The position numbers and the translations under genes were made by a program. Source: Patescibacteria group bacterium (lineage in GTDB: Bacteria; Patescibacteriota; Gracilibacteria; UBA1369; LOWO2-01-FULL-3). From it: a DNA stretch of 64,000 bases. Positions 29,206-63,408 of the stretch are shown here, in pieces (the stretch's first letter is position 1; each line of letters opens with the position of its first letter). The notes below the pieces were generated by a model. That model ran no database searches. It was not told where the DNA came from and saw nothing but the letters and a program-made list of their open reading frames with translations. The stretch covers positions 363 to 64,362 of the forward strand of contig JBBTQK010000005.1 of assembly GCA_038065735.1 (NCBI GenBank), given 5' to 3'.

Positions 29206-29335
29206 AATTGGGTCAAAAATGAAAACTCTCAGCTCTATCCCGTTAGGGAAAGCGGCGTAAACACCACCTTTTGAGCCAAGAGCAATTCCGTGGATATTTT
29301 AATACTAAAAATTGCTGTAGATCAAGATTTTATAC

Positions 29336-29410
29336 TGGCTCCCGAGGTCGGATTCGAACCGACGACCAACTCGTTAACAGCGAGCTGCGCTACCACTGCG
29401 CTACTCGGGA
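29336..29410 (-). tRNA. tRNA-Asn (anticodon GTT), CCA encoded
   Basis: Hand-folded cloverleaf: acceptor TCCCGAG/CTCGGGA, D arm GCGC-AGTGGTA-GCGC, anticodon arm GCTCG-CTGTTAA-CGAGT, T arm GTCGG-TTCGAAT-CCGAC, discriminator G plus CCA. 75 nt. Confidence 0.9.
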
Positions 29411-30668: not shown

Positions 30669-30830
30669 ATGTTAAACGAAATTCGAAAAATGTCAATTGA
30701 GCAGTGGTTTGTAATTCTGCTGATTTTGCTGGCTTTTGTGCTTGGTTTGGTCACGGGTTATGCTTATTTTCGCTACTGGAAAATAGAAACCTGTAAGCCG
30801 TCAATAGAAGTAGGGGATTTTGGCGAATAA
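30669..30830 (+). CDS. possible 53-aa single-TM peptide
   Basis: ATG...TAA ORF giving MLNEIRKMSIEQWFVILLILLAFVLGLVTGYAYFRYWK..., with one clear hydrophobic helix. Confidence 0.3.
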   Translation: MLNEIRKMSIEQWFVILLILLAFVLGLVTGYAYFRYWKIETCKPSIEVGDFGE

Positions 30831-33286: not shown

Positions 33287-33868
33287 ATGACTGGAAAATT
33301 GTTTCTCATCGTAGGACCGTCCGGATCTGGCAAAGGCACTGTAATCAAGGAATTACAGAGGAAATACAAGGGTTTTGTGTATCCGATTTCTTATACAACC
33401 CGTCAGCCTAGAGATGGTGAGGAGGATGGGCAAGTTTACCATTTCATCACTAAGGACAAATTTAAGGAAATGATCGAGGCAGGGGAGTTTTTGGAATATG
33501 CGACGGTTCATTCTGATAATTTTTATGGCACTGCAAAAAAGGAGATTCTCGAGGCACTTGAGGGTTCAGCAGTAGTAATTAGAGAAGTGGATATGCAGGG
33601 TTTTCATTCTATAAAAAATTTAGTACCAAAAGAGAATTTAGTATCGATTTTTATGAAAGTGATTAGTGAAGAAGACTTAAGCGAGAGAATTTTACGCCGC
33701 GGTGAAATCAGCGAAGACGAGCTAAACAAGCGTATGGAAAGCGCCCGCAAAGAGATTGCTCAATCCGGCGACTGTGACTATCAAGTCGAAAACGAATGGG
33801 GCTATGCCATGCGTTGCGTGACCTCAGTTGAGAAGATCGTGCTTGATGAGATCAAGAATTTGTATTAG
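33287..33868 (+). CDS. gmk: guanylate kinase
   Basis: 193 aa with P-loop GPSGSGKGT, and the YTTRQPRDGE and YHF motifs. Confidence 0.95.
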   Translation: MTGKLFLIVGPSGSGKGTVIKELQRKYKGFVYPISYTTRQPRDGEEDGQVYHFITKDKFKEMIEAGEFLEYATVHSDNFYGTAKKEILEALEGSAVVIREVDMQGFHSIKNLVPKENLVSIFMKVISEEDLSERILRRGEISEDELNKRMESARKEIAQSGDCDYQVENEWGYAMRCVTSVEKIVLDEIKNLY

Positions 33869-34107
33869 TTCTTTCTAATTAGGAAAATCATAGAAACCAA
33901 TGCTGTCACTGTAGCAACCAAAAAGCCTACGGAGAGCAGGTTTTCTGATACCGCCCAGGAATATTCGCGAGCTAGGTCGTAGTAAACGTAAATTCCGAAG
34001 GTGATGACAAAACCGAGTATGTAGGCTTTGCCTCTGAATGCTGCGACAAGAGCGAGTAGGGCAATTACAACTTCGAGGACGATTGAAACTACAGGGATGA
34101 TGTTCAT
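33865..34107 (-). CDS. small membrane protein (80 aa, 2-3 TM)
   Basis: Strongly hydrophobic ORF. Preferred over the overlapping 151-aa ORF in another frame. Confidence 0.5.
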   Translation of the reverse strand: MNIIPVVSIVLEVVIALLALVAAFRGKAYILGFVITFGIYVYYDLAREYSWAVSENLLSVGFLVATVTALVSMIFLIRKN

Positions 34108-34139
34108 AAGGTGTGGTTAGGGGATTGAGAGAGTTTAAT

Positions 34140-34385
34140 TTATAACTTTCTGACACCTGTGATTTTTGAAACACCTTTGCTGGCAGATTTAAGCCAGTCG
34201 ACGAATTTTTGAATAGCTGCCATGTCGTTGTGGGCAAGGGTGACGGTGAGAGCATCGTGCGAACGAAGAGCAAAGGTGGCGCTGAGGCCATGATGCTTGT
34301 GCTCTCGAATTGGACGTTCAATGTACTCAAGAAAAAAAGAAGTTTGTACGTTCACACCTTTGACTTCGTAATTGTATTGGAGCAT
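34140..34385 (-). CDS. hypothetical 81-aa protein (possibly a divergent acylphosphatase-like fold)
   Basis: The pattern ...VKGVNVQTSFF...GLSATF...VTLAHNDMAAIQKFVDWLKS... loosely follows acylphosphatase topology, but the canonical VQGVGFR motif is absent. Confidence 0.4.
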   Translation of the reverse strand: MLQYNYEVKGVNVQTSFFLEYIERPIREHKHHGLSATFALRSHDALTVTLAHNDMAAIQKFVDWLKSASKGVSKITGVRKL

Positions 34386-34403
34386 GGGGAGAATTGTAAT
34401 AGT

Positions 34404-34835
34404 TTATTTAGTTGTATCCTGACTAAATTCTACGGTCCATTCAATACCATATTTGTCTCTAAGCATTCCAAAGTGTGAACCCCAAGGGCTCTCTGCCATC
34501 GGCATTTCAACTGTTCCGCCTGAGGAAAGTCCAGCGAATAATTTGTCTGCTTCTTCTTTGCTTTCTGCACTAATTGAAATTTTAGATCTGTTTTCGTTTT
34601 CATTTACTCGGCCCAAAATTTCTGGAACGTCATTGGCTATTAAAATGTTTTTGCCAATAGGTAAAGCAATGCGCATTATTTTATTGGCTTCATTTTCTGG
34701 TACTGGGAATTCAGCGCTTGAAATGTCTTTGAAACGAGTAATCTTTGTGAATTCTCCGCCAAAAACTGATCTGTAAAATGTGAAAGCTTCTTCGGCATTG
34801 CCGTTGAAGTTAATGTGAGGATTAATTTGTGCCAT
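34404..34835 (-). CDS. VOC-family (glyoxalase/PhnB-like) protein
   Basis: Start moved to the internal ATG (MAQINPHINFNGNAEEAFTFYRSVFGG...), which is the typical PhnB-like N-terminus. The longer ORF would run into repeat copy A. Confidence 0.8.
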   Translation of the reverse strand: MAQINPHINFNGNAEEAFTFYRSVFGGEFTKITRFKDISSAEFPVPENEANKIMRIALPIGKNILIANDVPEILGRVNENENRSKISISAESKEEADKLFAGLSSGGTVEMPMAESPWGSHFGMLRDKYGIEWTVEFSQDTTK

Positions 34836-34858
34836 AGGTTTGATTGTTAATTGGTAAT

Positions 34859-34905
34859 TTGGCCACGCTTGACACAAATCTGCTGATTTGGCTGAGAGTT
34901 ACTGG
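34859..34905 (-). repeat. structured intergenic element, copy A (3' part truncated)
   Basis: TTGGCCACGCTTGACACAAATCTGCTGATTTGGCTGAGAGTTACTGG, with the hairpin CAAATC-TGCT-GATTTG at 34875-34890. Confidence 0.8.
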
Positions 34906-34932
34906 ACAAAGTTCGAACCATTATCGAAACCC

Positions 34933-34960
34933 ATCATACAGAATTTAGTATATTTGTAAA
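34933..34960 (-). promoter_or_regulatory. candidate sigma70-like promoter TTTACA-N16-TATGAT upstream of copy A and the VOC gene
   Basis: Hexamers read on the minus strand. It would place copy A in the 5' leader. Confidence 0.35.
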
Positions 34961-34984
34961 AACTGTGTTTCAGTTATTAAATCT

Positions 34985-36781
34985 TTATTTTTGATGTGCA
35001 ACATAAAAGTCGGAGTGTCCCGGATCGTTCTTGGGTTTTCTTTTATAGGCATTTATAACCAGATTATCATAAGCATTTATTAATGCACTATTGGCTTCTA
35101 ATATTTTTTCTACATCTTCCATGGTTTTTATATCTTCAGGATTTTTTAATGGAATAAAAGATGGTAAATTTGCGAATCCACTATCATCTACTGCACCTGC
35201 GCCTTTAGAATCGCTATAATCTAGAATAATTCTTCTTTTGTGCTCTAACTTGGTCAAGCCACTAGTGAAACCTTCTAGGCAACGTCCTATCAGACCACCT
35301 TGTACAGTGATGTCGCTATTCTTTGGGATAAGTCTATCTATTGTTACTGAGTCACGTTCCATCATATCACCGGATTCTTTTGTATTGGTTTGAAGGTAGA
35401 AAACGTTGCCTTTGCCCTGATTGAAATCACTCATAACATTATAAAAATCTCCTTCAGCCTGGGGATCACTTGCATAAACCTTTTGTAAGGCAAAAATAAC
35501 GACATTTTTTGGAGAAGAGATAAGCTCTTTATACCTTTTAAATTCTCTTATTTCTCTAATTAAACCGAGTGCCTCGGCACCTTTTAAGCCTGTTTTTGAG
35601 GTCATTGTTTTTTGTACTAAGTTTCGCATTTGTACAATGAAACTAGCTTCAAACATTTTTTCTACATTTCCGCCGTATTTTTTGAGCTGGTCTTTGTCCT
35701 GGGCCCCTGCTCGTGGTCCATAAAAAGGGTGTACAATAAAATACACTGATTTTCCTTTAAAAGTCTCGGGGGTTGCTTCATATAGTGAGGGTATGGAGAG
35801 GTCTTTGTTTTCCGGGCTTGCTTTGATCCTTTCTTGAGCAAGTTTTTTTGTCTTGGCATCAATAAATTTTGGATATGTCTTTAATAAATATTCACAGTCA
35901 GTGCCGCTGCCCATTTGTATTAAACAAGACGCAATTTTTTGTTTTTGCTCATCTGGCAAGTGTTTACTATTTAATATTTCGCTGAAAAAGAAACCGGAAG
36001 AAAATTGAGAGAATCCTTCATTCCAATCGCCTCCAAAACGTGAATCTTTGGGGTCTTTGCCGCTTTCATAAAGTGCATGATCTGTAGTATACGCGGTTAA
36101 ACCGCTAATCATGGTATTTTGTTGTTCTCTGTTTAAAGGTAATTTTGAGAGCAACAAGGTAAATAGATATGAATCCTCATATGGTGAACATTTGATTGCG
36201 TATTTATTAAGTCTTTCCTGTTGTTGTGGAGTTAAGGTGCAATATTCTGATAGGAAAAGGATTGCCGTAAAGAGGCTATTGTCTCCGGCGCTATCATCAG
36301 CAATGGCGTCAATATCCGCATCTGTAATAGTGAGCTTTGATATTGAGGCGAATTCAGGATTTTTTCTTCGTAGATCCTCAATTTTCAATTTGTGGTAAAT
36401 TTCTACTATTTTGGGGTTTGAAATTTTGTAAGTATCTTTTAGGGCAATCATTGCTTTGACGTTCTCTGTTTCAACAATAGCTGTTTTACTTAATTCTTGA
36501 TTTTTGATGTAACAGCTTAGTAAATCTCCAAGGTCTTGTATGTCATCCATTAGGTCATTGAGCGCGGCGAATTCCTCCTGCTCTTCTGTGGAAAGTTTTG
36601 GTTTGTACAGGAGAATTTCTCGACGTTGTCTAAGCTCCTTAATCTCTTTTATAATATTGCCAAGTTCAGCATCAATGGTTTTCTCAACTTCCTCGGAAAG
36701 TACATGCTTATCCACATCTTTTGCGATACTTTGAAACCGGGTTTCTATTTTTTCAAATTTTTGTTTTGGATTTTCTTCCAT
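34985..36781 (-). CDS. hypothetical 598-aa protein (orphan)
   Basis: Long clean ORF with a coiled-coil-like N-terminus. No motif recognised. Confidence 0.65.
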   Translation of the reverse strand: MEENPKQKFEKIETRFQSIAKDVDKHVLSEEVEKTIDAELGNIIKEIKELRQRREILLYKPKLSTEEQEEFAALNDLMDDIQDLGDLLSCYIKNQELSKTAIVETENVKAMIALKDTYKISNPKIVEIYHKLKIEDLRRKNPEFASISKLTITDADIDAIADDSAGDNSLFTAILFLSEYCTLTPQQQERLNKYAIKCSPYEDSYLFTLLLSKLPLNREQQNTMISGLTAYTTDHALYESGKDPKDSRFGGDWNEGFSQFSSGFFFSEILNSKHLPDEQKQKIASCLIQMGSGTDCEYLLKTYPKFIDAKTKKLAQERIKASPENKDLSIPSLYEATPETFKGKSVYFIVHPFYGPRAGAQDKDQLKKYGGNVEKMFEASFIVQMRNLVQKTMTSKTGLKGAEALGLIREIREFKRYKELISSPKNVVIFALQKVYASDPQAEGDFYNVMSDFNQGKGNVFYLQTNTKESGDMMERDSVTIDRLIPKNSDITVQGGLIGRCLEGFTSGLTKLEHKRRIILDYSDSKGAGAVDDSGFANLPSFIPLKNPEDIKTMEDVEKILEANSALINAYDNLVINAYKRKPKNDPGHSDFYVAHQK

Positions 36782-36782
36782 T

Positions 36783-36890
36783 TTATAATTTTTTTACTAA
36801 TTCACTTAGCAGATGCAGCTCTTTGGCTCTTGAGATTTTCTCCTTAATTTGCTTTATTTTTTGTTGAATTTTTTGTAATTCTGGATTCAT
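36783..36890 (-). CDS. possible 35-aa helical peptide coupled to the 598-aa gene
   Basis: MNPELQKIQQKIKQIKEKISRAKELHLLSELVKKL. Its TAA stop is 1 nt before the ATG at 36781. TGCTATAAT lies upstream at 36922-36930. Confidence 0.25.
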   Translation of the reverse strand: MNPELQKIQQKIKQIKEKISRAKELHLLSELVKKL

Positions 36891-36921
36891 AGATAACTCG
36901 AGGTTATTGGACTATCTGATA

Positions 36922-36930
36922 ATTATAGCA
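36922..36930 (-). promoter_or_regulatory. extended -10 element TGCTATAAT
   Basis: Read on the minus strand, about 30 nt upstream of the ATG at 36890. Confidence 0.4.
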
Positions 36931-37026
36931 TTTTCTGAGGTTTTTTTCTAGGATTGAAAGCTTAGAACTAGAAAAAGACAGCCTACTAAGCCAAGAAAAG
37001 GCCAATATGGAACAAATTCGTCTATC

Positions 37027-37082
37027 TTGGCCACGTTTGGCACAAATCTGCTGATCTGGCTGGCTAGTCGGGGCTAGTACCG
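37027..37082 (-). repeat. structured intergenic element, copy B
   Basis: TTGGCCACGTTTGGCACAAATCTGCTGATCTGGCTGGCTAGTCGGGGCTAGTACCG, with the hairpin at 37043-37058. It abuts the stop codon at 37085-37087. Confidence 0.8.
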
Positions 37083-37084
37083 TT

Positions 37085-38773
37085 TTATTTCACCAATTTT
37101 AAATATTCCTCTTCACACAAAATTCTTCCATCAAATTTTGATGGCCAGTTAGTTTTTATTTTTACTCCAGATTTTGAACAAACTGCATCACGTAACTCGC
37201 CATTAAACGGCATCCACGCAAAGTTATCCTGCAAACGATGAACATAATAATCGTGAGGTAGTGGGCCTTTAATTTTTTTTGCAAAATCAATATCTTTTTG
37301 AGTAACTTGAAAAGATCTCTTATATTTTTCATCCCAAAAAATCTGTTCAGCAAGCCACTTTTCTTTTTCAGAACTTAATTCATTGTAAGTATCAGGGATA
37401 GCATCAATTTCAGCAGTTTTCACATTTTTTCTTTCTACGGGTCCCCCTTCCCTAAATCCAAGATCCTTTGGCTTATCAAGAGGAAAATGGAATCCAGAAA
37501 AACTTTCCTCATAAGGGTTTGGAGCAAAGTAACCAGGGAAAAATTCTCCCCATTCAGCCTCCGTCGGCACTCCCTGCTGGTCGCCAGTTTTTTTAAGATG
37601 CTCAATTATTTTTTCACGCAAGATTTCATATTCTTTTTCGGAATATTGCTTATTGAAAATACAATATTTTTTATTTACCAAACCACAGCAGCCAAAACAA
37701 TACTGACAATTTTGAAGATAAGCCGAATATTCGATGAATTTACAGTGGGCAACGCTAAAAGAAAAAATTACATAGTAGGAAAAAACCGGTAGCGAAGTCA
37801 TGAAAGTAAGCTCACCGCCAACTGTTCCCAAGGAATCCAAAGTTACCTTAGCATCAGGTCCGGAAAAACAATCATTCGCAGAATTCTCATGTTTCGAAAG
37901 CAGATAGCAATTTTCACAGTCCTTGCTTTGCTTGATGAAATTACCTGAGGAATCTTCACATTGATCAATCTGCAAAGCTCTATGCCATGCAGTATTTGAC
38001 ATCATTTCACTGAAAAATTCTTTTGCCTTTTCGTAAGTTTTTCTAGATGTAAAATCCCACATAGTCTTTTGTTTCTCAAATTCTTCTTTTGAAAGTTGTT
38101 TATTCCCGAAACAATAGCTTTTGTTGCGAAGATTAAAGCAAAAAAGGCAATTGCTACAATCTCGACAGTCATACATAAAGGCGGAATCACTGACCGTTTT
38201 GCAATTCAACAAAAACAAACTATTAAAGCAATTAGAGGAATTTATCAGATCAAAACATAGTTCCGAATAGAAAGCGGAAACACCATAGTGGACATTTTTA
38301 CAATGATCGCATTCATAACAATAGGAACAATCTTCGCTATACTGGCCTGAATGGCAAAGATAACAATTTTTGCTGTAATACCAGTCATCGGTATATTCAC
38401 AATTTTGATTATTATTTTCAAAAACATGAGGTATTGGACATTTTTGAAACAACTCCCAAGCCTGATCAAAAAATGGCTGTGAAGGATCAAAGTCTCGAGA
38501 TGGGGGATTATTATTTTCAAACCATTCCTTTCTTTTCCAGACAGGATAAACGCAATCCGGACGGAAAACGGATATAATAGGCTCGCCGGTTTTGTCACAT
38601 TTTCTCTTATGTAAATTCCACTGAGGCCAAAATGCTCCAAGATATTGAAAACGATATTTTGGCAAAATCTTAGGCAAGCTATCTCCAAACCCAAATTTTT
38701 CCCTAAGAGTCATTTCATGCTCAGAAATCTCAAAATTTCGCCCAGAAATTTCACATTTAACTTCCATGCTCAA
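37085..38773 (-). CDS. Cys-rich hypothetical protein (562 aa)
   Basis: 31 Cys by hand count, mostly as [ND]-C in a central repeat-like zone (...SKNCYLCHSGQYSEDCSYCYECDHC...DCRDCSNCLFCFN...). C-x-x-[ST]-G motifs sit at both termini. Confidence 0.65.
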   Translation of the reverse strand: MSMEVKCEISGRNFEISEHEMTLREKFGFGDSLPKILPKYRFQYLGAFWPQWNLHKRKCDKTGEPIISVFRPDCVYPVWKRKEWFENNNPPSRDFDPSQPFFDQAWELFQKCPIPHVFENNNQNCEYTDDWYYSKNCYLCHSGQYSEDCSYCYECDHCKNVHYGVSAFYSELCFDLINSSNCFNSLFLLNCKTVSDSAFMYDCRDCSNCLFCFNLRNKSYCFGNKQLSKEEFEKQKTMWDFTSRKTYEKAKEFFSEMMSNTAWHRALQIDQCEDSSGNFIKQSKDCENCYLLSKHENSANDCFSGPDAKVTLDSLGTVGGELTFMTSLPVFSYYVIFSFSVAHCKFIEYSAYLQNCQYCFGCCGLVNKKYCIFNKQYSEKEYEILREKIIEHLKKTGDQQGVPTEAEWGEFFPGYFAPNPYEESFSGFHFPLDKPKDLGFREGGPVERKNVKTAEIDAIPDTYNELSSEKEKWLAEQIFWDEKYKRSFQVTQKDIDFAKKIKGPLPHDYYVHRLQDNFAWMPFNGELRDAVCSKSGVKIKTNWPSKFDGRILCEEEYLKLVK

Positions 38774-38818
38774 AAGGATACTTTAAACGTGGTTAGAAAT
38801 CAAAAAGCTAGATATCTC

Positions 38819-38923
38819 TTGGCCACGCTTGACACAAATCTGCTGATTTGGTCACGCTTGACACAGACTTGCTAGTCTGGCTGGCCAGTCGGGTCTAGTA
38901 CCCTTTCTGGACTAGTCAGGGTT
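38819..38923 (-). repeat. structured intergenic element, copy C (internally duplicated)
   Basis: Two hairpin units at 38835-38850 (CAAATC-TGCT-GATTTG) and 38864-38879 (CAGACT-TGCT-AGTCTG), followed by the common 3' part and a partial extra repeat. Confidence 0.8.
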
Positions 38924-38951
38924 ATTGTAGCATAACTAGAAAATGAGACAG
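38924..38951 (-). promoter_or_regulatory. candidate promoter CTGTCT-N16-(TGC)TACAAT upstream of copy C and the Cys-rich gene
   Basis: Minus-strand hexamers. The TGTCTCATTT -35 region is shared with the promoter at 40010-40038. Confidence 0.4.
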
Positions 38952-38964
38952 TAAAAAAGCATGT

Positions 38965-39780
38965 TCATTCCAGTTTTTTAGTAGTGGGATTTGAAAGAAG
39001 TGATTTCATTTGCATTATTGCAATCTCATTGAGCATAATCAGCCTTTTTTCTTGAGTGAGCCCTTGACGGATAAATTCGGCATTGAGTGACTCCATATTT
39101 GCGAGACAAACCAGCTGTGTAACATCTGCGCAATCGCGCATATTTGCCTTTGTGTCCGGATTCGCATCTCTCCATTCTTTGGATGTCACGCCAAAAAGTG
39201 CCATATTCAATACATCGGCTTCATTGGCATACACAAAATCTTTTTGTTTTTTTGTTATCAGCCTTGGAACAATATGCTCCTTGACAGCGTCGGTATGTAT
39301 TTTATAATTTATTTTAGTCAACATTCGCTTGGCATCCCAACCCAGATTCTTTCTCTCGCCTTCTTCCTCCTTTAATCTTTGGAATTCTTTGATGAGATAT
39401 AGTTTGAATTCCGGAGAAAGCCATGTTGCGAATTCAAAAGCGATATCTTTATGAGCAAAAGTGCCGCCATATCTTCCGGCGCTTGATTTAATACCAATGG
39501 CATTTGTTTTTTTAATCCACATCGACGAAGAAACGATAAAGCCGTTTGTTCCTGCCTCATTTTTAATCTTATGGAATTCAATAAGATTAAAATCAGGATT
39601 GTGTAGCTGTTCCCATGCCCCCATAAATTGAACGGTGTATTTGGTTGTAAGCCAATTTGATATAACCACTCCGCTATCATAGGTCTTATATTTGGCCATA
39701 TCAGTCAATGAAATGTAATCTCCATCATTCTGTGAGTGATATGCTATATTGATATTTTTGACGATTAGATCTTTTTTCAT
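38965..39780 (-). CDS. KilA-N domain protein
   Basis: ...DGDYISLTDMAKYK...WLTTKYTVQFMGAWEQLHNPDFN...GGTFAHKDIAFEFATWLSPEFKLYLIKEFQRLKE is typical of KilA-N. The start is moved to MKKDLIV because the longer ORF's ATG lies inside the promoter palindrome. Confidence 0.8.
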   Translation of the reverse strand: MKKDLIVKNINIAYHSQNDGDYISLTDMAKYKTYDSGVVISNWLTTKYTVQFMGAWEQLHNPDFNLIEFHKIKNEAGTNGFIVSSSMWIKKTNAIGIKSSAGRYGGTFAHKDIAFEFATWLSPEFKLYLIKEFQRLKEEEGERKNLGWDAKRMLTKINYKIHTDAVKEHIVPRLITKKQKDFVYANEADVLNMALFGVTSKEWRDANPDTKANMRDCADVTQLVCLANMESLNAEFIRQGLTQEKRLIMLNEIAIMQMKSLLSNPTTKKLE

Positions 39781-39807
39781 AGAAAGTAAAAAGTTCTTGA
39801 TACCCAC

Positions 39808-39836
39808 ATCGTAGGTGAGCATACGCTCACCGTCAA
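39808..39836 (-). promoter_or_regulatory. sigma70-like promoter TTGACG-N17-TACGAT with GGTGAGC-GTAT-GCTCACC palindrome in the spacer
   Basis: Read on the minus strand, about 28 nt upstream of the ATG at 39780. Same architecture as 28868-28896. Confidence 0.55.
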
Positions 39837-39932
39837 GGGAATCTTGATTTACATAGTTAAAATTAAAATTGCAAATTCAAAAACCGCTCGTCCTCCATAC
39901 GACAACGGATCAACAAGCTAGGCGTAATTTCA

Positions 39933-39988
39933 TTGGCCACGCTTGGCACAAATCTGCTGATTTGGCTGACTAGGCGGGTCTAGTAACT
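39933..39988 (-). repeat. structured intergenic element, copy D
   Basis: TTGGCCACGCTTGGCACAAATCTGCTGATTTGGCTGACTAGGCGGGTCTAGTAACTC, with the hairpin at 39949-39964. Confidence 0.8.
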
Positions 39989-40009
39989 CTTTGTGGCGAC
40001 CCTGGACTT

Positions 40010-40038
40010 ATTATACCTTTCGGCGTGAAATGAGACAA
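40010..40038 (-). promoter_or_regulatory. candidate promoter TTGTCT-N17-TATAAT upstream of copy D
   Basis: Minus-strand hexamers. The -35 region lies in a tandem AATGAGACA repeat (plus strand, 40028-40046). Confidence 0.4.
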
Positions 40039-40146
40039 ATGAGACATTATAAAAAGGGAAAAGAAGTGTCTCAAAAACTTGCAAATTAGCACTCAGTAGA
40101 ATAGAGTGACAGCCACTTAACAAACATACTACTTAATTACTAAATA

Positions 40147-41355
40147 ATGGACATTATACTAATAATTATTGCTGCACTACTGTTGGCAGGAGTTGGGTAC
40201 GCAATCTTCCTTATAAGAAATAAGGCAGATAATTCAAGTGAATTAATAGAACTAAAAGAGAATAACGCTAGATTAAACACTGAAAAATCACAGGCTGAGA
40301 ATAAAATAGGAGAACTTCAGGAGAAATTTGAAAATGAAAAAAGTGAAAAAGACCAATCTAATGGCAACAATAAACGAATGTATGTAGAAATTAGTGATTT
40401 GAAAAAAGATTTGCAAGTTAGTCAGGAAAAAGTCAGTGAATTAAAGAAAGAATTAACTACAATTAACACCAAGTCTGAACAAGAAAGAAAAGAGCATAAA
40501 GAAGAAATATCAAAACTAGAAAATGCACGGAAAAGTTTAGAAAAGGAACAAGATAGAGTCACCAATGAAGATGAAGAGAAGAAGGAAAAAGAGAAAAATG
40601 AAAGAGATAGGATATGGAATGAACACGAAGGGGAAGTAAAAAGAAGAATTAGCGATATTTGTAAATCCCCTGAATACGCCTTTCAGTATTATGACAATAC
40701 CAATTTACCGGAAGATTTTGATGGAAAATTGAAACCAGACTGCATGATAGAATTCTTAGGACGATATATTATTTTCGACCCAAAAACTTCTAGATCCGGT
40801 AATTTACAGACATATCTGGATGGACAGATTAAAAGTACTGTAGAAAAAATTAAAGAGTCCACACAAATAAACAAAACAATATTTTTTGTAGTCCCCACAG
40901 ATGCAGTAAGTTCATTAAAAAAACTGCAATATTATGAACAAGGATACACATTCCATATCATATCACCAGAAGCATTAGCACCAATAATATGGAGTTTTAA
41001 GGAGATATCAAAATATGAGTTTGCAGAAAAACTCGATCCACAAGAAAGAGAAAATATAATCAACTTGATCGCTGAATTCGATAACCATATCAATTTCAGA
41101 AATGCTGCAGACATACTACTGGCACAAACTGGAATAAATATCTTGCACAAAGCAAATCAGTTAGTACCAAACCTTGAAGAGGAAATTCAGCAAAAAAGAA
41201 ATAAAATTGGCTTAAGAAATTTGAAGCCAACAGATATAAAAAGATTGATGCTAAATAGAGATACTCAGCAAAGGGACATCGACAATATCGTTAATCCTAA
41301 ATCTGACATACCGAACGAAGTAATAGAAAGGGCCACAGAAATGATGAAGGAATAA
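40147..41355 (+). CDS. RmuC-like DNA recombination/nuclease protein (tentative)
   Basis: 402 aa with an N-terminal TM helix, a long coiled coil, then ...KLKPDCMIEFLGRYIIFDPKTS...TYL...IFFVVPTD.... This parallels the RmuC PD-(D/E)xK core (PD...viDaK...Y...lmFiP). Confidence 0.55.
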   Translation: MDIILIIIAALLLAGVGYAIFLIRNKADNSSELIELKENNARLNTEKSQAENKIGELQEKFENEKSEKDQSNGNNKRMYVEISDLKKDLQVSQEKVSELKKELTTINTKSEQERKEHKEEISKLENARKSLEKEQDRVTNEDEEKKEKEKNERDRIWNEHEGEVKRRISDICKSPEYAFQYYDNTNLPEDFDGKLKPDCMIEFLGRYIIFDPKTSRSGNLQTYLDGQIKSTVEKIKESTQINKTIFFVVPTDAVSSLKKLQYYEQGYTFHIISPEALAPIIWSFKEISKYEFAEKLDPQERENIINLIAEFDNHINFRNAADILLAQTGINILHKANQLVPNLEEEIQQKRNKIGLRNLKPTDIKRLMLNRDTQQRDIDNIVNPKSDIPNEVIERATEMMKE

Positions 41356-41448
41356 AAACCCCAAAAGTATATTTTACGCCTAGATTACAGTCTCACAAAA
41401 CTCTGTATGGACAAGCATCGTAATTATATAAATGTGAGGCTGTAATTT

Positions 41449-44400
41449 TCATGAATTTTGTATAATAGATTCAAATATCCAGTGGGTTTTGTCTCTTTTA
41501 CCTAAGCATAATTGACCTACAATGCCATTATCTTTAGTTGAGTACATTAGTCCAATATATCTAGTTTTTATTCCAAGGAACGCTTTAATTTCAACACATA
41601 GAACGTAGTGATGGCCAGATGCTGAACGTTCACTACTTAGTATTTGAGCTTTTTTATAGGCAGTAAGTAAGCAAACTTTTTTGCATACATTTTCTTCTAA
41701 TTCAAAATGAGAACCGCCGACTAAAGTACCATCCAATAATCTCTTCAATATCTTCATATTCCCAGATTCATCAAGATATTTAAAATGGAGTTCAATATTC
41801 AACAATCTACAAACCCTTATGTCATCTGGATGACATTGGAATCCACTCCATACACATACCTTTGACTCGAGTGGTGAACAGAATTTGCCTTCATCAGATT
41901 TGATAGCTTCCTCCTCGAGTATTAGACTCTCAGAAATGCTACTTTTAACAAAAAACTTCTTTAGTGCTCTTTTTTCACTAAAAGTGGAAGTTAGTAATTC
42001 ACTTGGCAATACTTTTTGACTAGTTACTATGCAAGTTTCTAAAATACCAGGTGCAACAATAGCACCAGTTACTTCACAGATTTCTGCTTCCTCAGATATT
42101 AACGGCTTACCTGTTTGCGAACATTTAATAAATTCCGATTTATGCCCAGCTTTACCAGAAACCGATGAAGTTAATTTTTCATCCATACGATAATTTTTCC
42201 CAGATACATCACTCACGCACAACTCAGCTTTTAAAGCTTCTGAATTGCTAAAATCGCATGTACCTATATAAATCGGCTCCGCCCATCTACCACTTACATC
42301 TGACTTTTTCATGACAGAAATAAGCACGCTCTTGCCAGTTACATCCGATTCTTGAACTTCATCCTTTAACACTTTTTTCTGCGTATATGAGCATGTGGCA
42401 AAGTATTCTGGCAATGCCTTGCGGCCACTCTCCTCAGAAGATTGTAATTTATCAGATAATGCAAATTTCCCACTGATCTCGCAGGTGCCCAAGCAAGTTA
42501 GGGGCAGATTCATACCTGTTATTTGACACACTCCCATATCAGGTTGAGCAGAGATCGAACCCCTTGATGGCAATACCCCTAAACTACTTTTATATTCAAC
42601 TCCAGACTCAAGTTCGTAAACACACTCTAGTTCAAGTTCACGGCAAACACTCCCCTCTAAGGCCACCAATGTCGCACTAACCCTAGGTGTAAAATCATCT
42701 TCAAGTTTTTTCCTTTTTCTCTCATCTGAACCAGCTGATTTGATTTCATGTTTTCTACGTTCTTCGTAAAATCTACAAAATTCCGCAACTCCTGGATCCA
42801 ACAGTATTTCTTGTGCTATTTGATTTAAATTTATCCCAGCATCACTTGGATCGTTCAGAAAGTCTCTGTCGAAATGGTCTAAAGAATTTGCAGTTGTAAA
42901 ATGACTGTCAGGACTGCAATCAACTTCAACAAGTCTCTCGTAGCTATCGTGGGCGACAGTAACTTTAACGTATACCAAAGCGGTACCTGCAAAAATATTC
43001 TTAACAGATTTCAACTCAGACAACTTTAAAGTCCCCTTGAAGTCGCTAGTCCAATTTTCGGCAAGATTTTTAGCTATATCCTCTGGTTCCACATCCAAAT
43101 CTTCTAAAATAAACATCCCATCATTAGTCATGCTTTTTACCAGCCTGTCGAAAGCTCCTGCACCTGGCCTATATAGAGTGCTAAATACCGCTCGCTTAGG
43201 GCCTGCAGTATTTAGTTCGACAATCTCAGTTTTTCCATCTTTTTCAAACGTTAGTATGCCATTGTCAGACTCAGTTAAACTCAACCCAAAACTTTCAAAG
43301 CTCTTAATAATAAAAGTCTCCAAATCCATAGATCTTGATATCTCAGGTAGATTTGGAGATTGAGGGCCATTGTACTCTGTTGTTTCTCCCAACAAATGTT
43401 CGATATTCGCTTCCTCTTCCTCTAATTTTTTCTTTGCAGACTCTATACTTTTCTCTTCTCTTTTGGCAGCATCCTCAACATCTATGCCCTTTAACGATGC
43501 CAATACTAATTTTAAGATTTTATCTTCAAACTTTTCTGCCTTTTCATCGCTATTTTCATCAATCCCACTTGCCTCAAGTAATGCCTCTATATCTCCAATA
43601 GCCTGTGAGGCCATTTGTAATTTTTCCATCAACCTATTCACAATATATTCTTCAAATGTTCCTTTCAGAGTCATGTTGAAAATTGATACATTCGCATGTT
43701 TTGATGCCAAACGCTGTACACGACCTATACGTTGCTCAACAATCATAGGATTCCATGGTAGGTCATAATTAACTAAAACATTTGAAGCCTGCAGATTAAC
43801 ACCTTCACTACCAGCTTCAGTTGAAATAATTACATTAATTTCTGGAGGCTCATTCTTGAAACTACTAATAGTTTCAGAATTCTTTGAAGTAGTGTCACCA
43901 TTTATCAAACTGCACTTAATACCTTTTTCTTCTAAAAAAAGCTGTATTGAAGTCTGAGTTTCACGACTACATGTAAAAATGACCATTCTCCAATCCTGGG
44001 GTTTCTCTGATCTTAGTCTTTCAACCAATGCTCCCAGCCCTCCCATCTTGGCGGTAATCGGAATTCGTTTCACTATTTCATCAATACTATCTCTAACTTG
44101 AGCATCAATAGTGCCATTTCTTACCATCGAGTTCATCCAAGACAATAATGCTTCAGGGCTACTAACAGATGCCTTTAATATTCCTATCTGAGCTAAACGA
44201 TTCAGATCCTCGATTGATTCAGAAACTACTTTAAGCAGCTCCAACTCTTCGTTAGTTGGATCGACAATATACCTTTCCACAATACGATCAGGAAACTGCA
44301 AATCAGCATCAGCCCTTCTAATTCGAGACATATAGCTATAAACAATATCTCTAAAATCTTCTTTTGCCTCAGGTTTTAATTTTCGAGCTTGGTCACGACT

Positions 44401-45159
44401 ATCATCAACGAATTTTCTATAAAATAATCCACTGCTACCAAAAGGGTTTTCATGCCCTCTGGCAGTAGACAATAAATCTACAAGAGAATACATGTCCCAA
44501 AGCCTATTCTGGATAGGAGTTGCTGTTAACATAAGTACATACCGAAACATTCGATTCGCCAAAGCTTTTTGAAATTGTATCGCAACTTTAGGTGTTTTAT
44601 CTACGCCGTAAAGATTTCGCAACTTATGGGCTTCATCCAAAATCAACATATCATAGCCATTATCTATAATTTTCTCTAAATGGATACGGGCTGATGTATA
44701 GGTTGTTATTACTGCTCCTTGACCATCTGGAGGTTCGGCAGAAATGAGATCTCCACCAATAGCTATAGTTGATTGAATGCCAAATTTTGATTGCAGCTCC
44801 TCCTGCCATTGCTCCATCAATAATTTAGGACAAACAATCAAAACCTTTTCAATGCGATTTTGCGTCATTAGTTCACTCATCACCAATCCTGCACTGATTG
44901 TTTTACCAAGACCTACATCATCGGCTAGCAAAGTAACCGGCAGTCTTCTGCAAAAAGTTATTAGATTTTTTACTTGATGTTCATATGGCTTAACTTTATC
45001 CTTCCATGCATTTTTAGATTTTAAGTCAGATTCCTTCTCAATAACTATGGGGTCAATTAAACTCCATTCTAAAGCCGCCTTATATAAATAAAACTTCGAT
45101 TTATCCGTATTACGCTTTAGCGGCTTTATTTTGATTTTTGACTCAAATTCATTCACCAA
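41449..45159 (-). CDS. SNF2-family helicase (1236 aa) with a long C-terminal extension containing a 15-residue repeat array
   Basis: Motifs LADDVGLGKTI (I), DEAHKLRN (II), LLTATPIQN (III) and QRIGRVQRLASK (VI) in the first ~520 aa. The C-terminal ~700 aa are unassigned. Confidence 0.85.
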   Translation of the reverse strand: MVNEFESKIKIKPLKRNTDKSKFYLYKAALEWSLIDPIVIEKESDLKSKNAWKDKVKPYEHQVKNLITFCRRLPVTLLADDVGLGKTISAGLVMSELMTQNRIEKVLIVCPKLLMEQWQEELQSKFGIQSTIAIGGDLISAEPPDGQGAVITTYTSARIHLEKIIDNGYDMLILDEAHKLRNLYGVDKTPKVAIQFQKALANRMFRYVLMLTATPIQNRLWDMYSLVDLLSTARGHENPFGSSGLFYRKFVDDSRDQARKLKPEAKEDFRDIVYSYMSRIRRADADLQFPDRIVERYIVDPTNEELELLKVVSESIEDLNRLAQIGILKASVSSPEALLSWMNSMVRNGTIDAQVRDSIDEIVKRIPITAKMGGLGALVERLRSEKPQDWRMVIFTCSRETQTSIQLFLEEKGIKCSLINGDTTSKNSETISSFKNEPPEINVIISTEAGSEGVNLQASNVLVNYDLPWNPMIVEQRIGRVQRLASKHANVSIFNMTLKGTFEEYIVNRLMEKLQMASQAIGDIEALLEASGIDENSDEKAEKFEDKILKLVLASLKGIDVEDAAKREEKSIESAKKKLEEEEANIEHLLGETTEYNGPQSPNLPEISRSMDLETFIIKSFESFGLSLTESDNGILTFEKDGKTEIVELNTAGPKRAVFSTLYRPGAGAFDRLVKSMTNDGMFILEDLDVEPEDIAKNLAENWTSDFKGTLKLSELKSVKNIFAGTALVYVKVTVAHDSYERLVEVDCSPDSHFTTANSLDHFDRDFLNDPSDAGINLNQIAQEILLDPGVAEFCRFYEERRKHEIKSAGSDERKRKKLEDDFTPRVSATLVALEGSVCRELELECVYELESGVEYKSSLGVLPSRGSISAQPDMGVCQITGMNLPLTCLGTCEISGKFALSDKLQSSEESGRKALPEYFATCSYTQKKVLKDEVQESDVTGKSVLISVMKKSDVSGRWAEPIYIGTCDFSNSEALKAELCVSDVSGKNYRMDEKLTSSVSGKAGHKSEFIKCSQTGKPLISEEAEICEVTGAIVAPGILETCIVTSQKVLPSELLTSTFSEKRALKKFFVKSSISESLILEEEAIKSDEGKFCSPLESKVCVWSGFQCHPDDIRVCRLLNIELHFKYLDESGNMKILKRLLDGTLVGGSHFELEENVCKKVCLLTAYKKAQILSSERSASGHHYVLCVEIKAFLGIKTRYIGLMYSTKDNGIVGQLCLGKRDKTHWIFESIIQNS
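41812..42528 (-). repeat. coding tandem repeat: about 16 units of 15 aa (45 nt), consensus [CS]-x-[VI]-[ST]-G-[KR]-x-x-L-x6
   Basis: aa 878-1116 of the SNF2 protein: CQITGMNLPLTCLGT / CEISGKFALSDKLQS / SEESGRKALPEYFAT / ... / CVWSGFQCHPDDIRV. Strict 15-aa register, with one 14-aa unit. Confidence 0.8.
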
Positions 45160-61309: not shown

Positions 61310-62188
61310 TTACGTTGAGAATTCGAAGCTTTCTAGAATTTCTTGCTTATCTTCGGTTAATTCTTTTGTGTTGTTGAACTCAATAAGGTAGTTTTTGCCA
61401 TTTTGGTATCTGATTGTGGTAATTCTGGATGTTGTGCTGCAATGTACTAGGCAGGCATTGGAATATTCGTCTTCTTGCTTGTTGCAGTTTGCATCGCAGT
61501 AACCGTTTGGAAAACTATAAATGTCGGTTTCCATGTCGTTTATTTCTATTGTTTTGTCTGGTTGTTGAGTCTGATAGTTCGTAATTTTTTGTCCTTCTAT
61601 TACATCAATCACAAAAAAATCATCACTATTTATTGACCACCTTGAGAATTTCACAGGATTTTCTAGATTGTATTTTGTTGTTAGGTAATCTGGCTTAAAC
61701 TCAATGCTGTAGCCAAAACTTTCGTTTTTAAACTTTGTTTTTTGCAGCTGGATAGTTTTCATGATTTTTTCTACAGTTTTGATGTGATCTGGATTTTTTG
61801 TATCTAGTTTTGCCATGACATAAAAATCATCATCTAGTTGAATAAAATATGATTTGCCTGGTTCATTAGGCGTGTCCGCCATTACTTCCTCCATTGAGAC
61901 TTCTGAAAATTCATTCAGATAAGCTAATTCAAGATGAAAGTTAGTTGATTTATCTTGGTTTACTACATCTAATGCTCCTCCAATACCATCGGTGCCAAAA
62001 ATATTTTCTGTATGCCAGTTTTCGGGATAGTCGAAGGATAGGTGGACTAATTTATCGCCTTCAAAAGTTTGCCAGCTTGGGTCGACAAGATGTTCAGTTT
62101 CTGTACTTTGTTTTTCTGTTGTGTTTTTACCACATCCAACAAAAACCAGACTTAAAAGAAGGAAAGTTGTCAGAAATATTTTTTTCAT
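61310..62188 (-). CDS. lipoprotein, hypothetical (paralog of 62774..63376)
   Basis: 292 aa with signal peptide plus lipobox LLLSLVFVGCGK. Confidence 0.6.
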   Translation of the reverse strand: MKKIFLTTFLLLSLVFVGCGKNTTEKQSTETEHLVDPSWQTFEGDKLVHLSFDYPENWHTENIFGTDGIGGALDVVNQDKSTNFHLELAYLNEFSEVSMEEVMADTPNEPGKSYFIQLDDDFYVMAKLDTKNPDHIKTVEKIMKTIQLQKTKFKNESFGYSIEFKPDYLTTKYNLENPVKFSRWSINSDDFFVIDVIEGQKITNYQTQQPDKTIEINDMETDIYSFPNGYCDANCNKQEDEYSNACLVHCSTTSRITTIRYQNGKNYLIEFNNTKELTEDKQEILESFEFST

Positions 62189-62191
62189 AAT

Positions 62192-62773: not shown

Positions 62774-63376
62774 TTAGAATTTTATAGTCTCTAGGATTTT
62801 TTCGAATTCAGATTGTGCGGCCTCAGTTGGGTCATAGAATTCTATTTCTATGAATTTGTCGTCTTTAGAGAATGTGTAGTAAATACGCTGATTTTTGCCT
62901 TCATAGCTGAGTTCGGGCTCATCAGATTGATATTTTTCAGTTAATTTGTCTGTTGTTTCTATTCTCAGTTTTAGGAATGTAATATTGCCAATTATTTTTT
63001 CTTCAGCATTTATCACTTTGCTACATACCTGAATGGTTTCACATGAATCTTGAAATTTTGCCTCTTCAGTGATAAGCATTTCATCGTAACTCAAAGTTTT
63101 TACGACGTTTTCACTTGTTATCACTATTCCTGGATATTCGTAATTTTTAAAGCTAATTAGCTCTGCATTGTAAGGTTGGTTTGACTGTTCCTGTTCTTCA
63201 CTTTTTGTCAGGGTGAATAGGTAAGGGACTTCCAATGTGAATCCACTGAATTCATTAGTGTAAATGTATGGACCAAGGTCAGTTACTGGCTTTACGGTTT
63301 CTTTATCAATTTTTTTACCACAGCCAACAAAAACCAGACTTAAGAGAATAAATGTTGAGAGTAATTTTTTCTGCAT
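62774..63376 (-). CDS. lipoprotein, hypothetical (paralog of 61310..62188)
   Basis: 200 aa with lipobox ILLSLVFVGCGK. The C-terminal ...EFEKILETIKF resembles ...KQEILESFEF of the paralog. Confidence 0.6.
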   Translation of the reverse strand: MQKKLLSTFILLSLVFVGCGKKIDKETVKPVTDLGPYIYTNEFSGFTLEVPYLFTLTKSEEQEQSNQPYNAELISFKNYEYPGIVITSENVVKTLSYDEMLITEEAKFQDSCETIQVCSKVINAEEKIIGNITFLKLRIETTDKLTEKYQSDEPELSYEGKNQRIYYTFSKDDKFIEIEFYDPTEAAQSEFEKILETIKF

Positions 63377-63408
63377 AAGCCTGGTTTGTTAAAATTTTTA
63401 ATTTAGAA

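Follow-up and report, generated by a model that had tools for sequence, protein, structure and literature searches.

Four copies of a composite element in a minus-strand gene run

The window analysed here, a stretch of 64,000 nucleotides (nt) from a Patescibacteria group bacterium (GenBank assembly GCA_038065735.1, contig JBBTQK010000005.1, positions 363 to 64,362), carries on its minus strand, adjoining gmk, a run of genes among which a short intergenic element is repeated. The run comprises a KilA-N gene (38965-39822), matched by the PADLOC model PDC-S22 at E=4e-126; a gene for a 560-residue Cys-rich protein (37085-38767); a 35-residue open reading frame (ORF; 36890-36783) and a gene for a 598-residue protein (36781-34985), which together span 34985-36890 and match no family; and a VOC/glyoxalase-family gene (34404-34835). 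Copies D and C of the element bracket the KilA-N gene, copies C and B bracket the Cys-rich gene, and the VOC gene lies 3' of copy A. An earlier note on this DNA had described the four copies, found nowhere else in the 64 kb, as a single structured RNA motif of about 55 nt. Their number and location were borne out by a covariance model, R1, built from the copies and run over the window with filters off: it matches these copies alone (A 34859-34905, B 37027-37082, C 38819-38923 and D 39933-39988), which comprise five units, all on the minus strand. A further 10 kb at either end, scanned on the same contig (330 kb; ENA ERZ1292638 NODE_3) to make 84 kb in total, contained no additional copy. The picture of one motif did not survive, since the 5' third is a core that occurs across the lineage and shows no covariation, and the hairpin-forming part is a separate 29-nt unit. 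The element is composite, a lineage-wide core of 28-30 nt joined to a two-hairpin unit private to this genome.

Read on the gene strand, a full copy consists of the core AAAGGGTACTAGACCCGACTRGYCAGCCA, one or two 29-nt units CCAAATCAGCAGATTTGTGYCAAGCGTGR, and a terminal CCAA; the unit is present once in copies A, B and D and twice in copy C. In copy D (39933-39990) the core occupies 39990-39963 (AGAGTTACTAGACCCGCCTAGTCAGCCA) and is followed by hairpins H2 (39964-39949) and H3 (39947-39936) and the CCAA tail. Copy C (38819-38905, earlier given as 38819-38923) has a core at 38905-38878 without a mismatch to the lineage consensus, then unit C2 (H2 38879-38864, H3 38862-38851) and unit C1 (H2 38850-38835, H3 38833-38822); the 29-nt spacing of the two was established in a separate repeat search, as the array scores too low for Tandem Repeats Finder. 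Copy B (37027-37084) has its core at 37084-37057, H2 with one G.U pair at 37058-37043 and H3 at 37041-37030, and begins immediately 3' of the TAA stop codon of the Cys-rich gene. Copy A (34859-34907; H2 34890-34875, H3 34873-34862) is present but incomplete: its core reads GTCCAG, TAACTC and TCAGCCA in succession, an internal deletion having removed about 20 nt of the 5' part and left TCAGCCA and the unit, and 23 nt separate it from the ATG of the VOC gene (34835).

The 5' half of the consensus, at three or fewer mismatches, has five matches against 0.04 expected; the 3' half has three against none expected. A partial match at 30713-30734, considered as a sixth copy, falls inside a small membrane ORF and was judged to be due to chance. 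Two Logan contigs from the same organism (L002 and L003) begin or stop exactly within copies C and A. The repeats are longer than the assembler k-mer, so that assemblies break at them, and similar elements may be hidden in other metagenome-assembled genomes (MAGs).

Compensated changes in the hairpins

RNAalifold predicts H2 as the six-base-pair hairpin CARAYY-AGCA-RRUYUG, which is the stem reported earlier from the plus strand as CAAATC-TGCT-GATTTG, and adds to that description a second hairpin of four base pairs, H3, GYCA-ARCG-UGRC. The 5' arm of H2 is the tail of the upstream core itself (..GCCAAAUC), whose CAAAUC pairs with GAUUUG; the 29-nt unit is placed within the 3' end of this older core and appears to have arisen there. 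Every one of the 62 stem cells is paired on the minus strand. On the plus strand the count is 58 of 62, since four G.U pairs turn into A.C. Because these four pairs form on the minus strand only, the folding strand, if there is a single one, is the strand of the genes; the strand argued for previously is supported, and the wider family of cores described below is sense-oriented as well.

Four pairs in H2 and H3 have changes on both sides, with observed values reached in 3 of 500 column shuffles, and in a control in which pairing partners were slid along the alignment H2/H3 pairing falls to 15-42%. Units C1 and C2 differ at 7 of 29 positions, and all seven differences keep pairing. Six constitute three compensated H2 pairs, exactly as had been claimed, and the seventh converts U.G to U-A in H3. 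The 29-nt unit with its hairpins was found in no other genome searched, including all foreign copies of the core, and a strict pattern for the hairpin half (TTGGYCACGYTTGRCACN6TGCTN6GY) has 0 matches in viral, genome and metagenome collections.

A core sequence shared across species

The covariance-model search of relatives succeeded for the core and found the hairpin unit nowhere else. R1 locates five partial, gene-strand copies in the related contig L005, which encodes a Cys-rich protein of 84% identity; only GGGTACTAGACCCGACTGGTCAGCCAAA is retained in them, and two come after the same promoter block that precedes copy D. A search with the core pattern extended this to 12 species-representative MAGs (Peribacteria, Peregrinibacteria, Gracilibacteria or Patescibacteria) and 29 metagenome loci, together with three high-G+C chance matches. 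To judge by the names of homologues and of the genomes matched, the window comes from a bacterium of Peregrinibacteria/Peribacteria type within the candidate phyla radiation. The core, AAAGGGTACTAGACCCGACTRGYCAGCCA(AAT), 28-30 nt long, is near-invariant in at least 12 Peribacteria/Peregrinibacteria species. When up to seven mismatches are allowed there are 55 distinct instances, 27 of them identical across 28 nt; these were gathered with a near-consensus pattern, which inflates conservation inside the pattern, yet five flanking bases outside what the pattern required, AAGGG, are still about 90% conserved. The edges of the core are sharp, and the flanks are random except for a run of A on the 5' side and A/T on the 3' side. 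In two conserved coding regions, among them a BipA-type gene at 67-70%, the DNA of core-bearing genomes is only 65-70% identical to that of the window, and the core is identical even in genomes with so divergent a BipA-type gene.

No Rfam 15 family reaches its gathering threshold on any copy of the element, nor is there a match to any copy even at E<=10; Rfam likewise gave nothing on the cores or promoter-leader blocks of 21 related loci. Viral contigs yielded one chance-type match to the core, BLAST against plasmids and phages found no similar DNA, and full-text searches of the literature, whether by motif string or by repeats of Peribacteria, returned no description of it. The four repeats are genuine and undescribed.

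The core is conserved as a sequence, with no covariation in support of a fold. Uncompensated changes disrupt the potential hairpins GGGU/ACCC and CUAG/CURG in several copies. A general stem around the core was rejected, the best-helix length being 4.26 against 4.02 in control flanks, and variants of flank and core in fixed register show no covariation (permutation p=0.57); copies with at least three enclosing pairs number 13 of 55, against 4 of 55 controls. A single central position is strongly polymorphic (A/G, about 50:50) and faces an invariant U, a polymorphism that would be neutral on the sense strand only and so gives a weak hint of RNA pairing. Of the inverted arms that a Xer/dif-type or other tyrosine-recombinase core site would have, dyad symmetry is seen in CTAG-N6-CTRG only; the outer arms are not symmetric.

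Position and orientation of cores

All 55 core instances are intergenic. Between co-directional genes, 19 are sense and three antisense (binomial p ~4e-4), and the three are doubtful cases on poorly resolved loci. Cores occupy four kinds of position. Some follow a conserved sigma-70-like promoter block, made up of an upstream T-tract, a -35 region TTGTCTCA and a -10 region ending 8-25 nt before the core, with 16-50 nt then remaining to the ATG; since the block ends so close to many cores, the core would be at the 5' end of the transcript. Others are placed -11 to +27 nt from a stop codon and ahead of the following ATG, in array gaps with no space for a promoter, where the core must therefore be intercistronic RNA. 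A third kind is found 3' of the last gene, immediately before a convergent gene, and a fourth after a promoter without any gene, in one case with a canonical terminator next. The element, described earlier as a 5' leader, is not only that, as cores also come after last genes and stand alone after promoters.

In 11 of 34 cases the ATG follows the core end at 16-25 nt, the mode being 16-17, and the spacers are AU-rich and lack a Shine-Dalgarno sequence. By eye, many genes downstream of cores encode small lipoproteins or membrane proteins. In 13-14 of 22 pairs of neighbouring same-strand cores, a single ORF takes up at least 90% of the intervening gap; such an ORF has its ATG 16-48 nt after one core, and the next core begins -11 to +27 nt from its stop codon. 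A few bracketed ORFs end at a TAG within the core. Cores lie 0.5-2 kb apart with ORFs between them, apart from one pair separated by 61 nt (L016).

Promoter blocks with a core but without an ORF were seen in L030 (2640-2860, minus strand) and L049 (3380-3600, plus strand), and also in L010, L024/L039 and L050; in L030 and L049 a canonical terminator, hairpin plus U-tract, comes directly after the core. Such units could be either small RNA genes or empty expression sites. Further conserved modules lie 3' of some foreign cores (L019 4987+, L011 5171+, L032 2718-, L016 1328-, L014 1250-, L021 2128-), namely TTACGGGYAGATTGRA..CCTAGG, GTTAGGATTCTAACCCTAG and ..GATTGTWAGG..CCCAGGGKTCGTAAGCGRAGCGTC, none of which is in Rfam. 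About 110 nt upstream of the cores in L012, L019, L021-L023, L028, L033, L036, L040 and L041 is a conserved block with two tandem promoter-like sites, in each of whose -35 regions TGTCTCA recurs, with three direct occurrences and sometimes one inverted (TGAGACA). TGTCTCA may be a regulator-binding motif.

Differences between genomes at cores

When related genomes are compared, cores mark exactly where differences start or stop. The only stretch common to L015 and L023 is a block of core, lipoprotein gene and core (1211-1866 and 1792-2450, respectively), placed behind different promoters. Between L028 and L041 an identity of 89% extends to the final base of the core, past which the two are unrelated, and in L014 and L019 one conserved neighbour is accompanied by different bracketed genes. 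Cores flank the Cys-rich gene on either side in the window and in L005, within differing neighbourhoods, and are absent around it in L004, L007 and L058; the closer relatives reached through the Cys-rich protein (L004, L007, L058 and L061) have neither flanking cores nor the hairpin unit. Compared with L005 and L007, the window carries an insertion of two 29-nt units, placed precisely where the core meets the conserved leader of the Cys-rich gene.

The annotated genes within about 10 kb of arrays include no integrase, transposase or other recombinase. Genes divergent from or next to promoter blocks are mutually unrelated, and a shared recombinase or regulator, looked for among them, was not found. 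Other samples of the organism of the window have the same gene order, with no alternative arrangement of the island.

Promoter-like sites and other features of the window

Candidate promoters had been proposed just upstream of copies A, C and D. The scan finds those before A (34933-34960, TTTACA-16-TATGAT) and before D (40010-40038, TTGTCT-17-TATAAT), both on the minus strand. The site before C (38924-38951, minus strand; CTGTCT-16-TACAAT, then ..AGTCCAG) falls under the scan threshold, yet its homologue in other genomes is a conserved promoter block, and it resembles the blocks of L024 and L050. The block before D is homologous to the 'type 1' block TGTCTCATTTGTCTCATTTCACsCCGAAAGGTATAmTAAGTCCAG of L005, L017 and L051, and has a second promoter-like site upstream of it (40074-40046, minus strand). 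A further minus-strand site, with an extended -10 (TGCTATAAT), lies at 36922-36950, 3' of copy B and before the 35-residue ORF and the 598-residue gene.

Another promoter-like site (39808-39836, minus strand), containing the palindrome GGTGAGC-GTAT-GCTCACC, lies between copy D and the start of the KilA-N gene. The first ATG of that ORF (39822) falls within the site, and the PDC-S22 profile match starts at residue 16, so that translation probably starts at the ATG at 39780. As this promoter-like site stands between copy D and the probable start, copy D cannot be taken simply as the leader of the KilA-N gene. The site is repeated at 28898-28872 (minus strand), again with the palindrome between the hexamers (TTGACG-GGTGAGY..RCTCACC-TA), so placed that it precedes both defence-candidate genes, KilA-N (PDC-S22) and RhuM/Fic (PDC-S23); it also occurs in another Peribacteria genome, after a promoter-core unit in L017 at about 2020-2060. 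In its layout it looks like a shared operator.

The Cys-rich protein has about 1,900 homologues in Peregrinibacteria/Gracilibacteria and no Pfam, NCBIfam or PADLOC model. Also near the gene run are a gene for an SNF2/DrmD-like helicase and the RhuM/Fic gene (28844-27879). Upstream of the latter and of a short ORF, 50 nt 3' of tRNA-Asn (29336-29410), is a match to the Rfam DUF3800-IX RNA (RF02968) at 29221-29283 (minus strand), with 39.4 bits against a gathering threshold of 36.8; no DUF3800 gene is present among the window proteins scanned. The region 33287-45159, adjoining gmk and the SSB and UPF0020-methyltransferase genes, is a variable island, occupied here by the genes from KilA-N through VOC, in L058 by a reverse transcriptase (RVT_1) and in L007 by other genes; the L005 contig, which is separate, carries Pycsar-like genes (PycTM and cyclase). 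A 67-nt repeat, 84% identical, at 62124-62190 and 63312-63378 spans the 5' ends of two adjacent minus-strand ORFs, 61310-62188 and 62774-63376, and, by eye, encodes a common lipoprotein-type signal peptide.

Comparison with known classes of element

The element was compared with known classes, and all testable features of membership failed except modular build and cassette-like organisation. As a miniature inverted-repeat transposable element (MITE) or Correia-type element it lacks both hallmarks that the earlier note had named, terminal inverted repeats and target-site duplications: its ends, GGTACTAG.. and ..GCGTGGCCAA, are not complementary, and the flanks of copies A-D share no duplicated bases. 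The statement that it is no simple terminator is likewise upheld, as a scan for intrinsic terminators finds none on the minus strand at any copy; the sole match (37059-37078) falls on the plus strand, which has no gene end there. The stems of the element are 4-6 base pairs long and A/U-rich. Read from the sequence, there are no RYYYAAC/GTTRRRY boxes and no long dyad across the element of the kind found in integron attC sites, and the Pfam lists of called genes around the window array and related arrays hold no integrase, although the organisation is integron-like, a likeness and not membership: same-direction single-ORF units end in a conserved site, and their content varies between relatives. 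A CRISPR array was rejected on the distances between cores, which are filled by ORFs and not by uniform spacers. The plus-strand sequence TGGCACAAATCTGCT of copies B and D resembles a sigma-54 promoter, with a spacing of 9 nt and not 10, while copies A and C read TGACAC, the GG missing; such a site would point away from the genes. Membership in BOX or REP fails on copy number (four in 84 kb) and on sense bias, and agrees in the modular build with a variable inner module. The 3' ends of tRNA-Gln and tRNA-Asn are not repeated in 27-47 kb, which disposes of a tRNA-derived att site or island border.

The nearest known systems each share part of this arrangement. Pneumococcal BOX elements (boxA-boxB(n)-boxC) and enterobacterial REP/BIME are, like the element, short, modular, hairpin-forming extragenic repeats, and they are co-transcribed with their neighbours, as the element would be; BOX also has an inner module that varies in number, as do the 0, 1 or 2 units of 29 nt. 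Unlike them, the core is near-invariant across species and has little self-complementarity, a strong sense bias, a regular position relative to start and stop codons and a low copy number here. Integron cassettes with their attC/attI sites resemble the arrays in being same-direction, short, unrelated and mostly single-ORF units that each end in a conserved site, with a promoter before the first site, ORFs that nearly fill the units, and content that differs between related genomes; they differ in that the cores have no intI nearby and no R''/L''-L'/R' palindrome, are conserved in sequence over 28-30 nt, and form many small, dispersed arrays. Correia elements or 'mobile promoters' are intergenic repeats with outward promoters that are co-transcribed and can alter mRNA processing or stability, but they occur in both orientations with terminal inverted repeats and TA target duplications, none of which applies here. 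The 5'-UTR recombination sites of Mycoplasma variable lipoprotein loci (the vsa vrs box and the vsp/vpma sites) are, like the core, conserved 20-35-bp sequences in fixed orientation upstream of many small lipoprotein genes, with promoters that several genes share; those sites, however, are mutually inverted and lie beside a dedicated recombinase that drives inversions, whereas cores are direct repeats with no adjacent recombinase, and many core-flanked genes do not encode lipoproteins. Finally, the ops/JUMPStart element, which recruits RfaH, is short, orientation-specific and read as sequence in leaders and long operons, with downstream genes that lack Shine-Dalgarno sites; the core has no sequence similarity to GGCGGTAGCGTG and occurs after last genes as well.

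Interpretation

Our preferred reading, which we hold tentatively, is that the core is a transcribed boundary or leader element read by a hypothetical factor and that the hairpins are a local RNA add-on. As part of the mRNA, the core would lie a few nucleotides into transcripts that begin at a promoter, in the gaps separating cistrons, and at the 3' terminus of the final cistron. A hypothetical lineage-specific factor, a protein or a ribonuclease, would read it as sequence and set the processing, stability or translation of the flanking gene, and H2 and H3 may mask or buffer the 3' tail of the core or shield the four island mRNAs in their 5' part. Gene conversion probably carried the composite from one core to its neighbours. 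This reading sets out from observed anatomy, strand bias, positions, conservation and compensation; the transcription, the trans-acting factor and the effect on expression we infer. It ranks first in that it alone covers strand-asymmetric compensated hairpins, sense bias, promoterless intercistronic copies and fixed spacing to the ATG, and the ORF-less promoter-core-terminator units, which look like small RNA genes, also count in its favour.

Several observations weigh against an RNA boundary element. The evidence for compensation comes from five paralogous units of one genome: the four compensated H2/H3 pairs are all from within-genome units, with no homologue of the unit from another genome, and quasipalindrome correction or template switching in a DNA hairpin could yield compensation without selection. 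Covariation in the core hairpins GGGU/ACCC and CUAG/CURG is no greater than in shuffles, and a stem enclosing the core occurs in some copies only, as GACCAGUC...GACUGGUC in L024 and CUAGUC...GACUGG in copy C. For a simple role as leader or in translation, a core after the last gene and before the first is not needed, and genome differences that start or end at cores, like core-bracketed single genes, speak more directly of DNA exchange. The factor itself is hypothetical, the analysis having yielded no candidate. The claim of a new cis-regulatory or processing RNA motif is supported in part, by strand and compensation, and tempered by the single-genome paralogues and by genome differences at the motif that make DNA recombination a serious rival.

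That rival, possible but less probable than an RNA boundary element, holds that the core is a DNA recombination site bounding portable single-gene cassettes (leader, ORF and core), which are exchanged between promoter 'platforms' (promoter and core) by a recombinase encoded elsewhere or by short-homology recombination after DNA uptake; the window would be a cassette array, and transcription of the core incidental. It accounts readily for the single gap-filling ORF in 13-14 of 22 same-strand pairs, for the at least eight arrays that finish with a core immediately before a convergent gene, for the L015/L023 block on different promoters, the L028/L041 identity that stops at the core's last base and the L014/L019 gene replacement beside a common neighbour, and for the Cys-rich gene being core-bracketed in the window and L005 and core-free in L004, L007 and L058. 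Gene-less promoter-core units would be empty platforms, the core's 3' edge is also where the 29-nt unit is placed, and the centre CTAG-N6-CTRG recalls a 6-bp crossover between inverted arms. Yet no recombinase is among the annotated genes within about 10 kb of arrays, and the genes divergent from platforms are unrelated; there is neither an attC-like long imperfect palindrome nor a GTTRRRY box; the cores are dispersed and do not form one array; homologous recombination at any conserved repeat would produce the same homology edges; the island is arranged identically in other samples of the organism; and the compensated hairpins and the tight 16-17-nt spacing to the ATG are left unexplained. The larger claim that Peribacteria, of the candidate phyla radiation (CPR), possess a gene-cassette system in which a near-invariant 28-30-nt site ends each cassette and follows conserved strong promoter platforms is somewhat less probable again. 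If true, such a system would resemble integrons while lacking both the attC fold and an integrase next to it, and exchange would proceed by a recombinase acting in trans or by transformation and short-homology recombination; its cassettes would include many small lipoprotein, membrane or defence-candidate genes, and the window would present four genes in an array, its sites having acquired an additional hairpin unit.

It is unlikely that the element is a modular intergenic repeat of a selfish or neutral kind, like pneumococcal BOX, REP/BIME or the Neisseria Correia element, which spreads and is homogenised by gene conversion; this reading would attribute the apparent compensation to template switching in a DNA hairpin and not to selection. 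The modular build from promoter block, core and zero, one or two 29-nt units, with other modules after foreign cores, fits such a repeat, as do presence and absence among related genomes and the breaking of short-read contigs within the repeats, and gene conversion predicts the same unit at the same place in all four local copies. Against it stands the identity of 28 nt with sharp edges across species whose housekeeping genes are about 68% identical, which needs strong selection or recognition by some machinery; orientation bias, regular spacing to start codons, the lack of terminal inverted repeats or target duplications and the low copy number are equally out of keeping, and no transposase appears in the annotated gene lists near the copies, although no dedicated search was run. 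Quite improbable is a duplex DNA operator, in which the 16-bp dyad CAAATC-N4-GATTTG, the core or both, just downstream of the promoters, would be the target of a repressor (the KilA-N protein, for example, or a global regulator) that co-regulates the four island genes. H2 is indeed a perfect dyad, a promoter-like -10 hexamer is found 10-25 bp upstream of each of copies A, C and D, the array includes a gene for a protein with a KilA-N DNA-binding domain, and symmetric half-site changes in unit C2 could mean altered operator specificity; but C2 alters three of six bases per half-site with pairing retained, H3 behaves alike, copy B comes after a stop codon and upstream of its neighbour's promoter, an operator would have nothing to do at the cores that separate cistrons or follow last genes, and the wobble asymmetry has no meaning for duplex DNA. 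Least probable of all is a factor-dependent transcription terminator at gene ends that would serve as a regulated attenuator after promoters. Cores 0-27 nt after stop codons, their orientation-specificity and copy B directly 3' of the Cys-rich gene are what such a terminator would show, whereas the gene strand has no G+C-rich stem with a U-tract, genes inside arrays without a promoter of their own would never be expressed, and in L030 and L049 the canonical intrinsic terminator that follows the core would be redundant.

Significance

CPR bacteria have tiny genomes and few recognisable regulators, and to our knowledge almost nothing is known of how they control or exchange genes. An intergenic sequence of 28 nt that is identical across species implies that some machinery must read it. 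If that machinery acts on RNA, the core would be a lineage-wide post-transcriptional signal for many small envelope lipoprotein genes and, here, for candidate defence genes; if it acts on DNA, the core would mark a new mode of gene-cassette shuffling in an uncultured phylum. As a sequence with a defined strand and junction, the core is a precise searchable handle for existing metagenomes and metatranscriptomes, and the private hairpin unit is an example of how such a site is locally modified. The core is a conserved intergenic cis element, with a real chance of being something more unusual.

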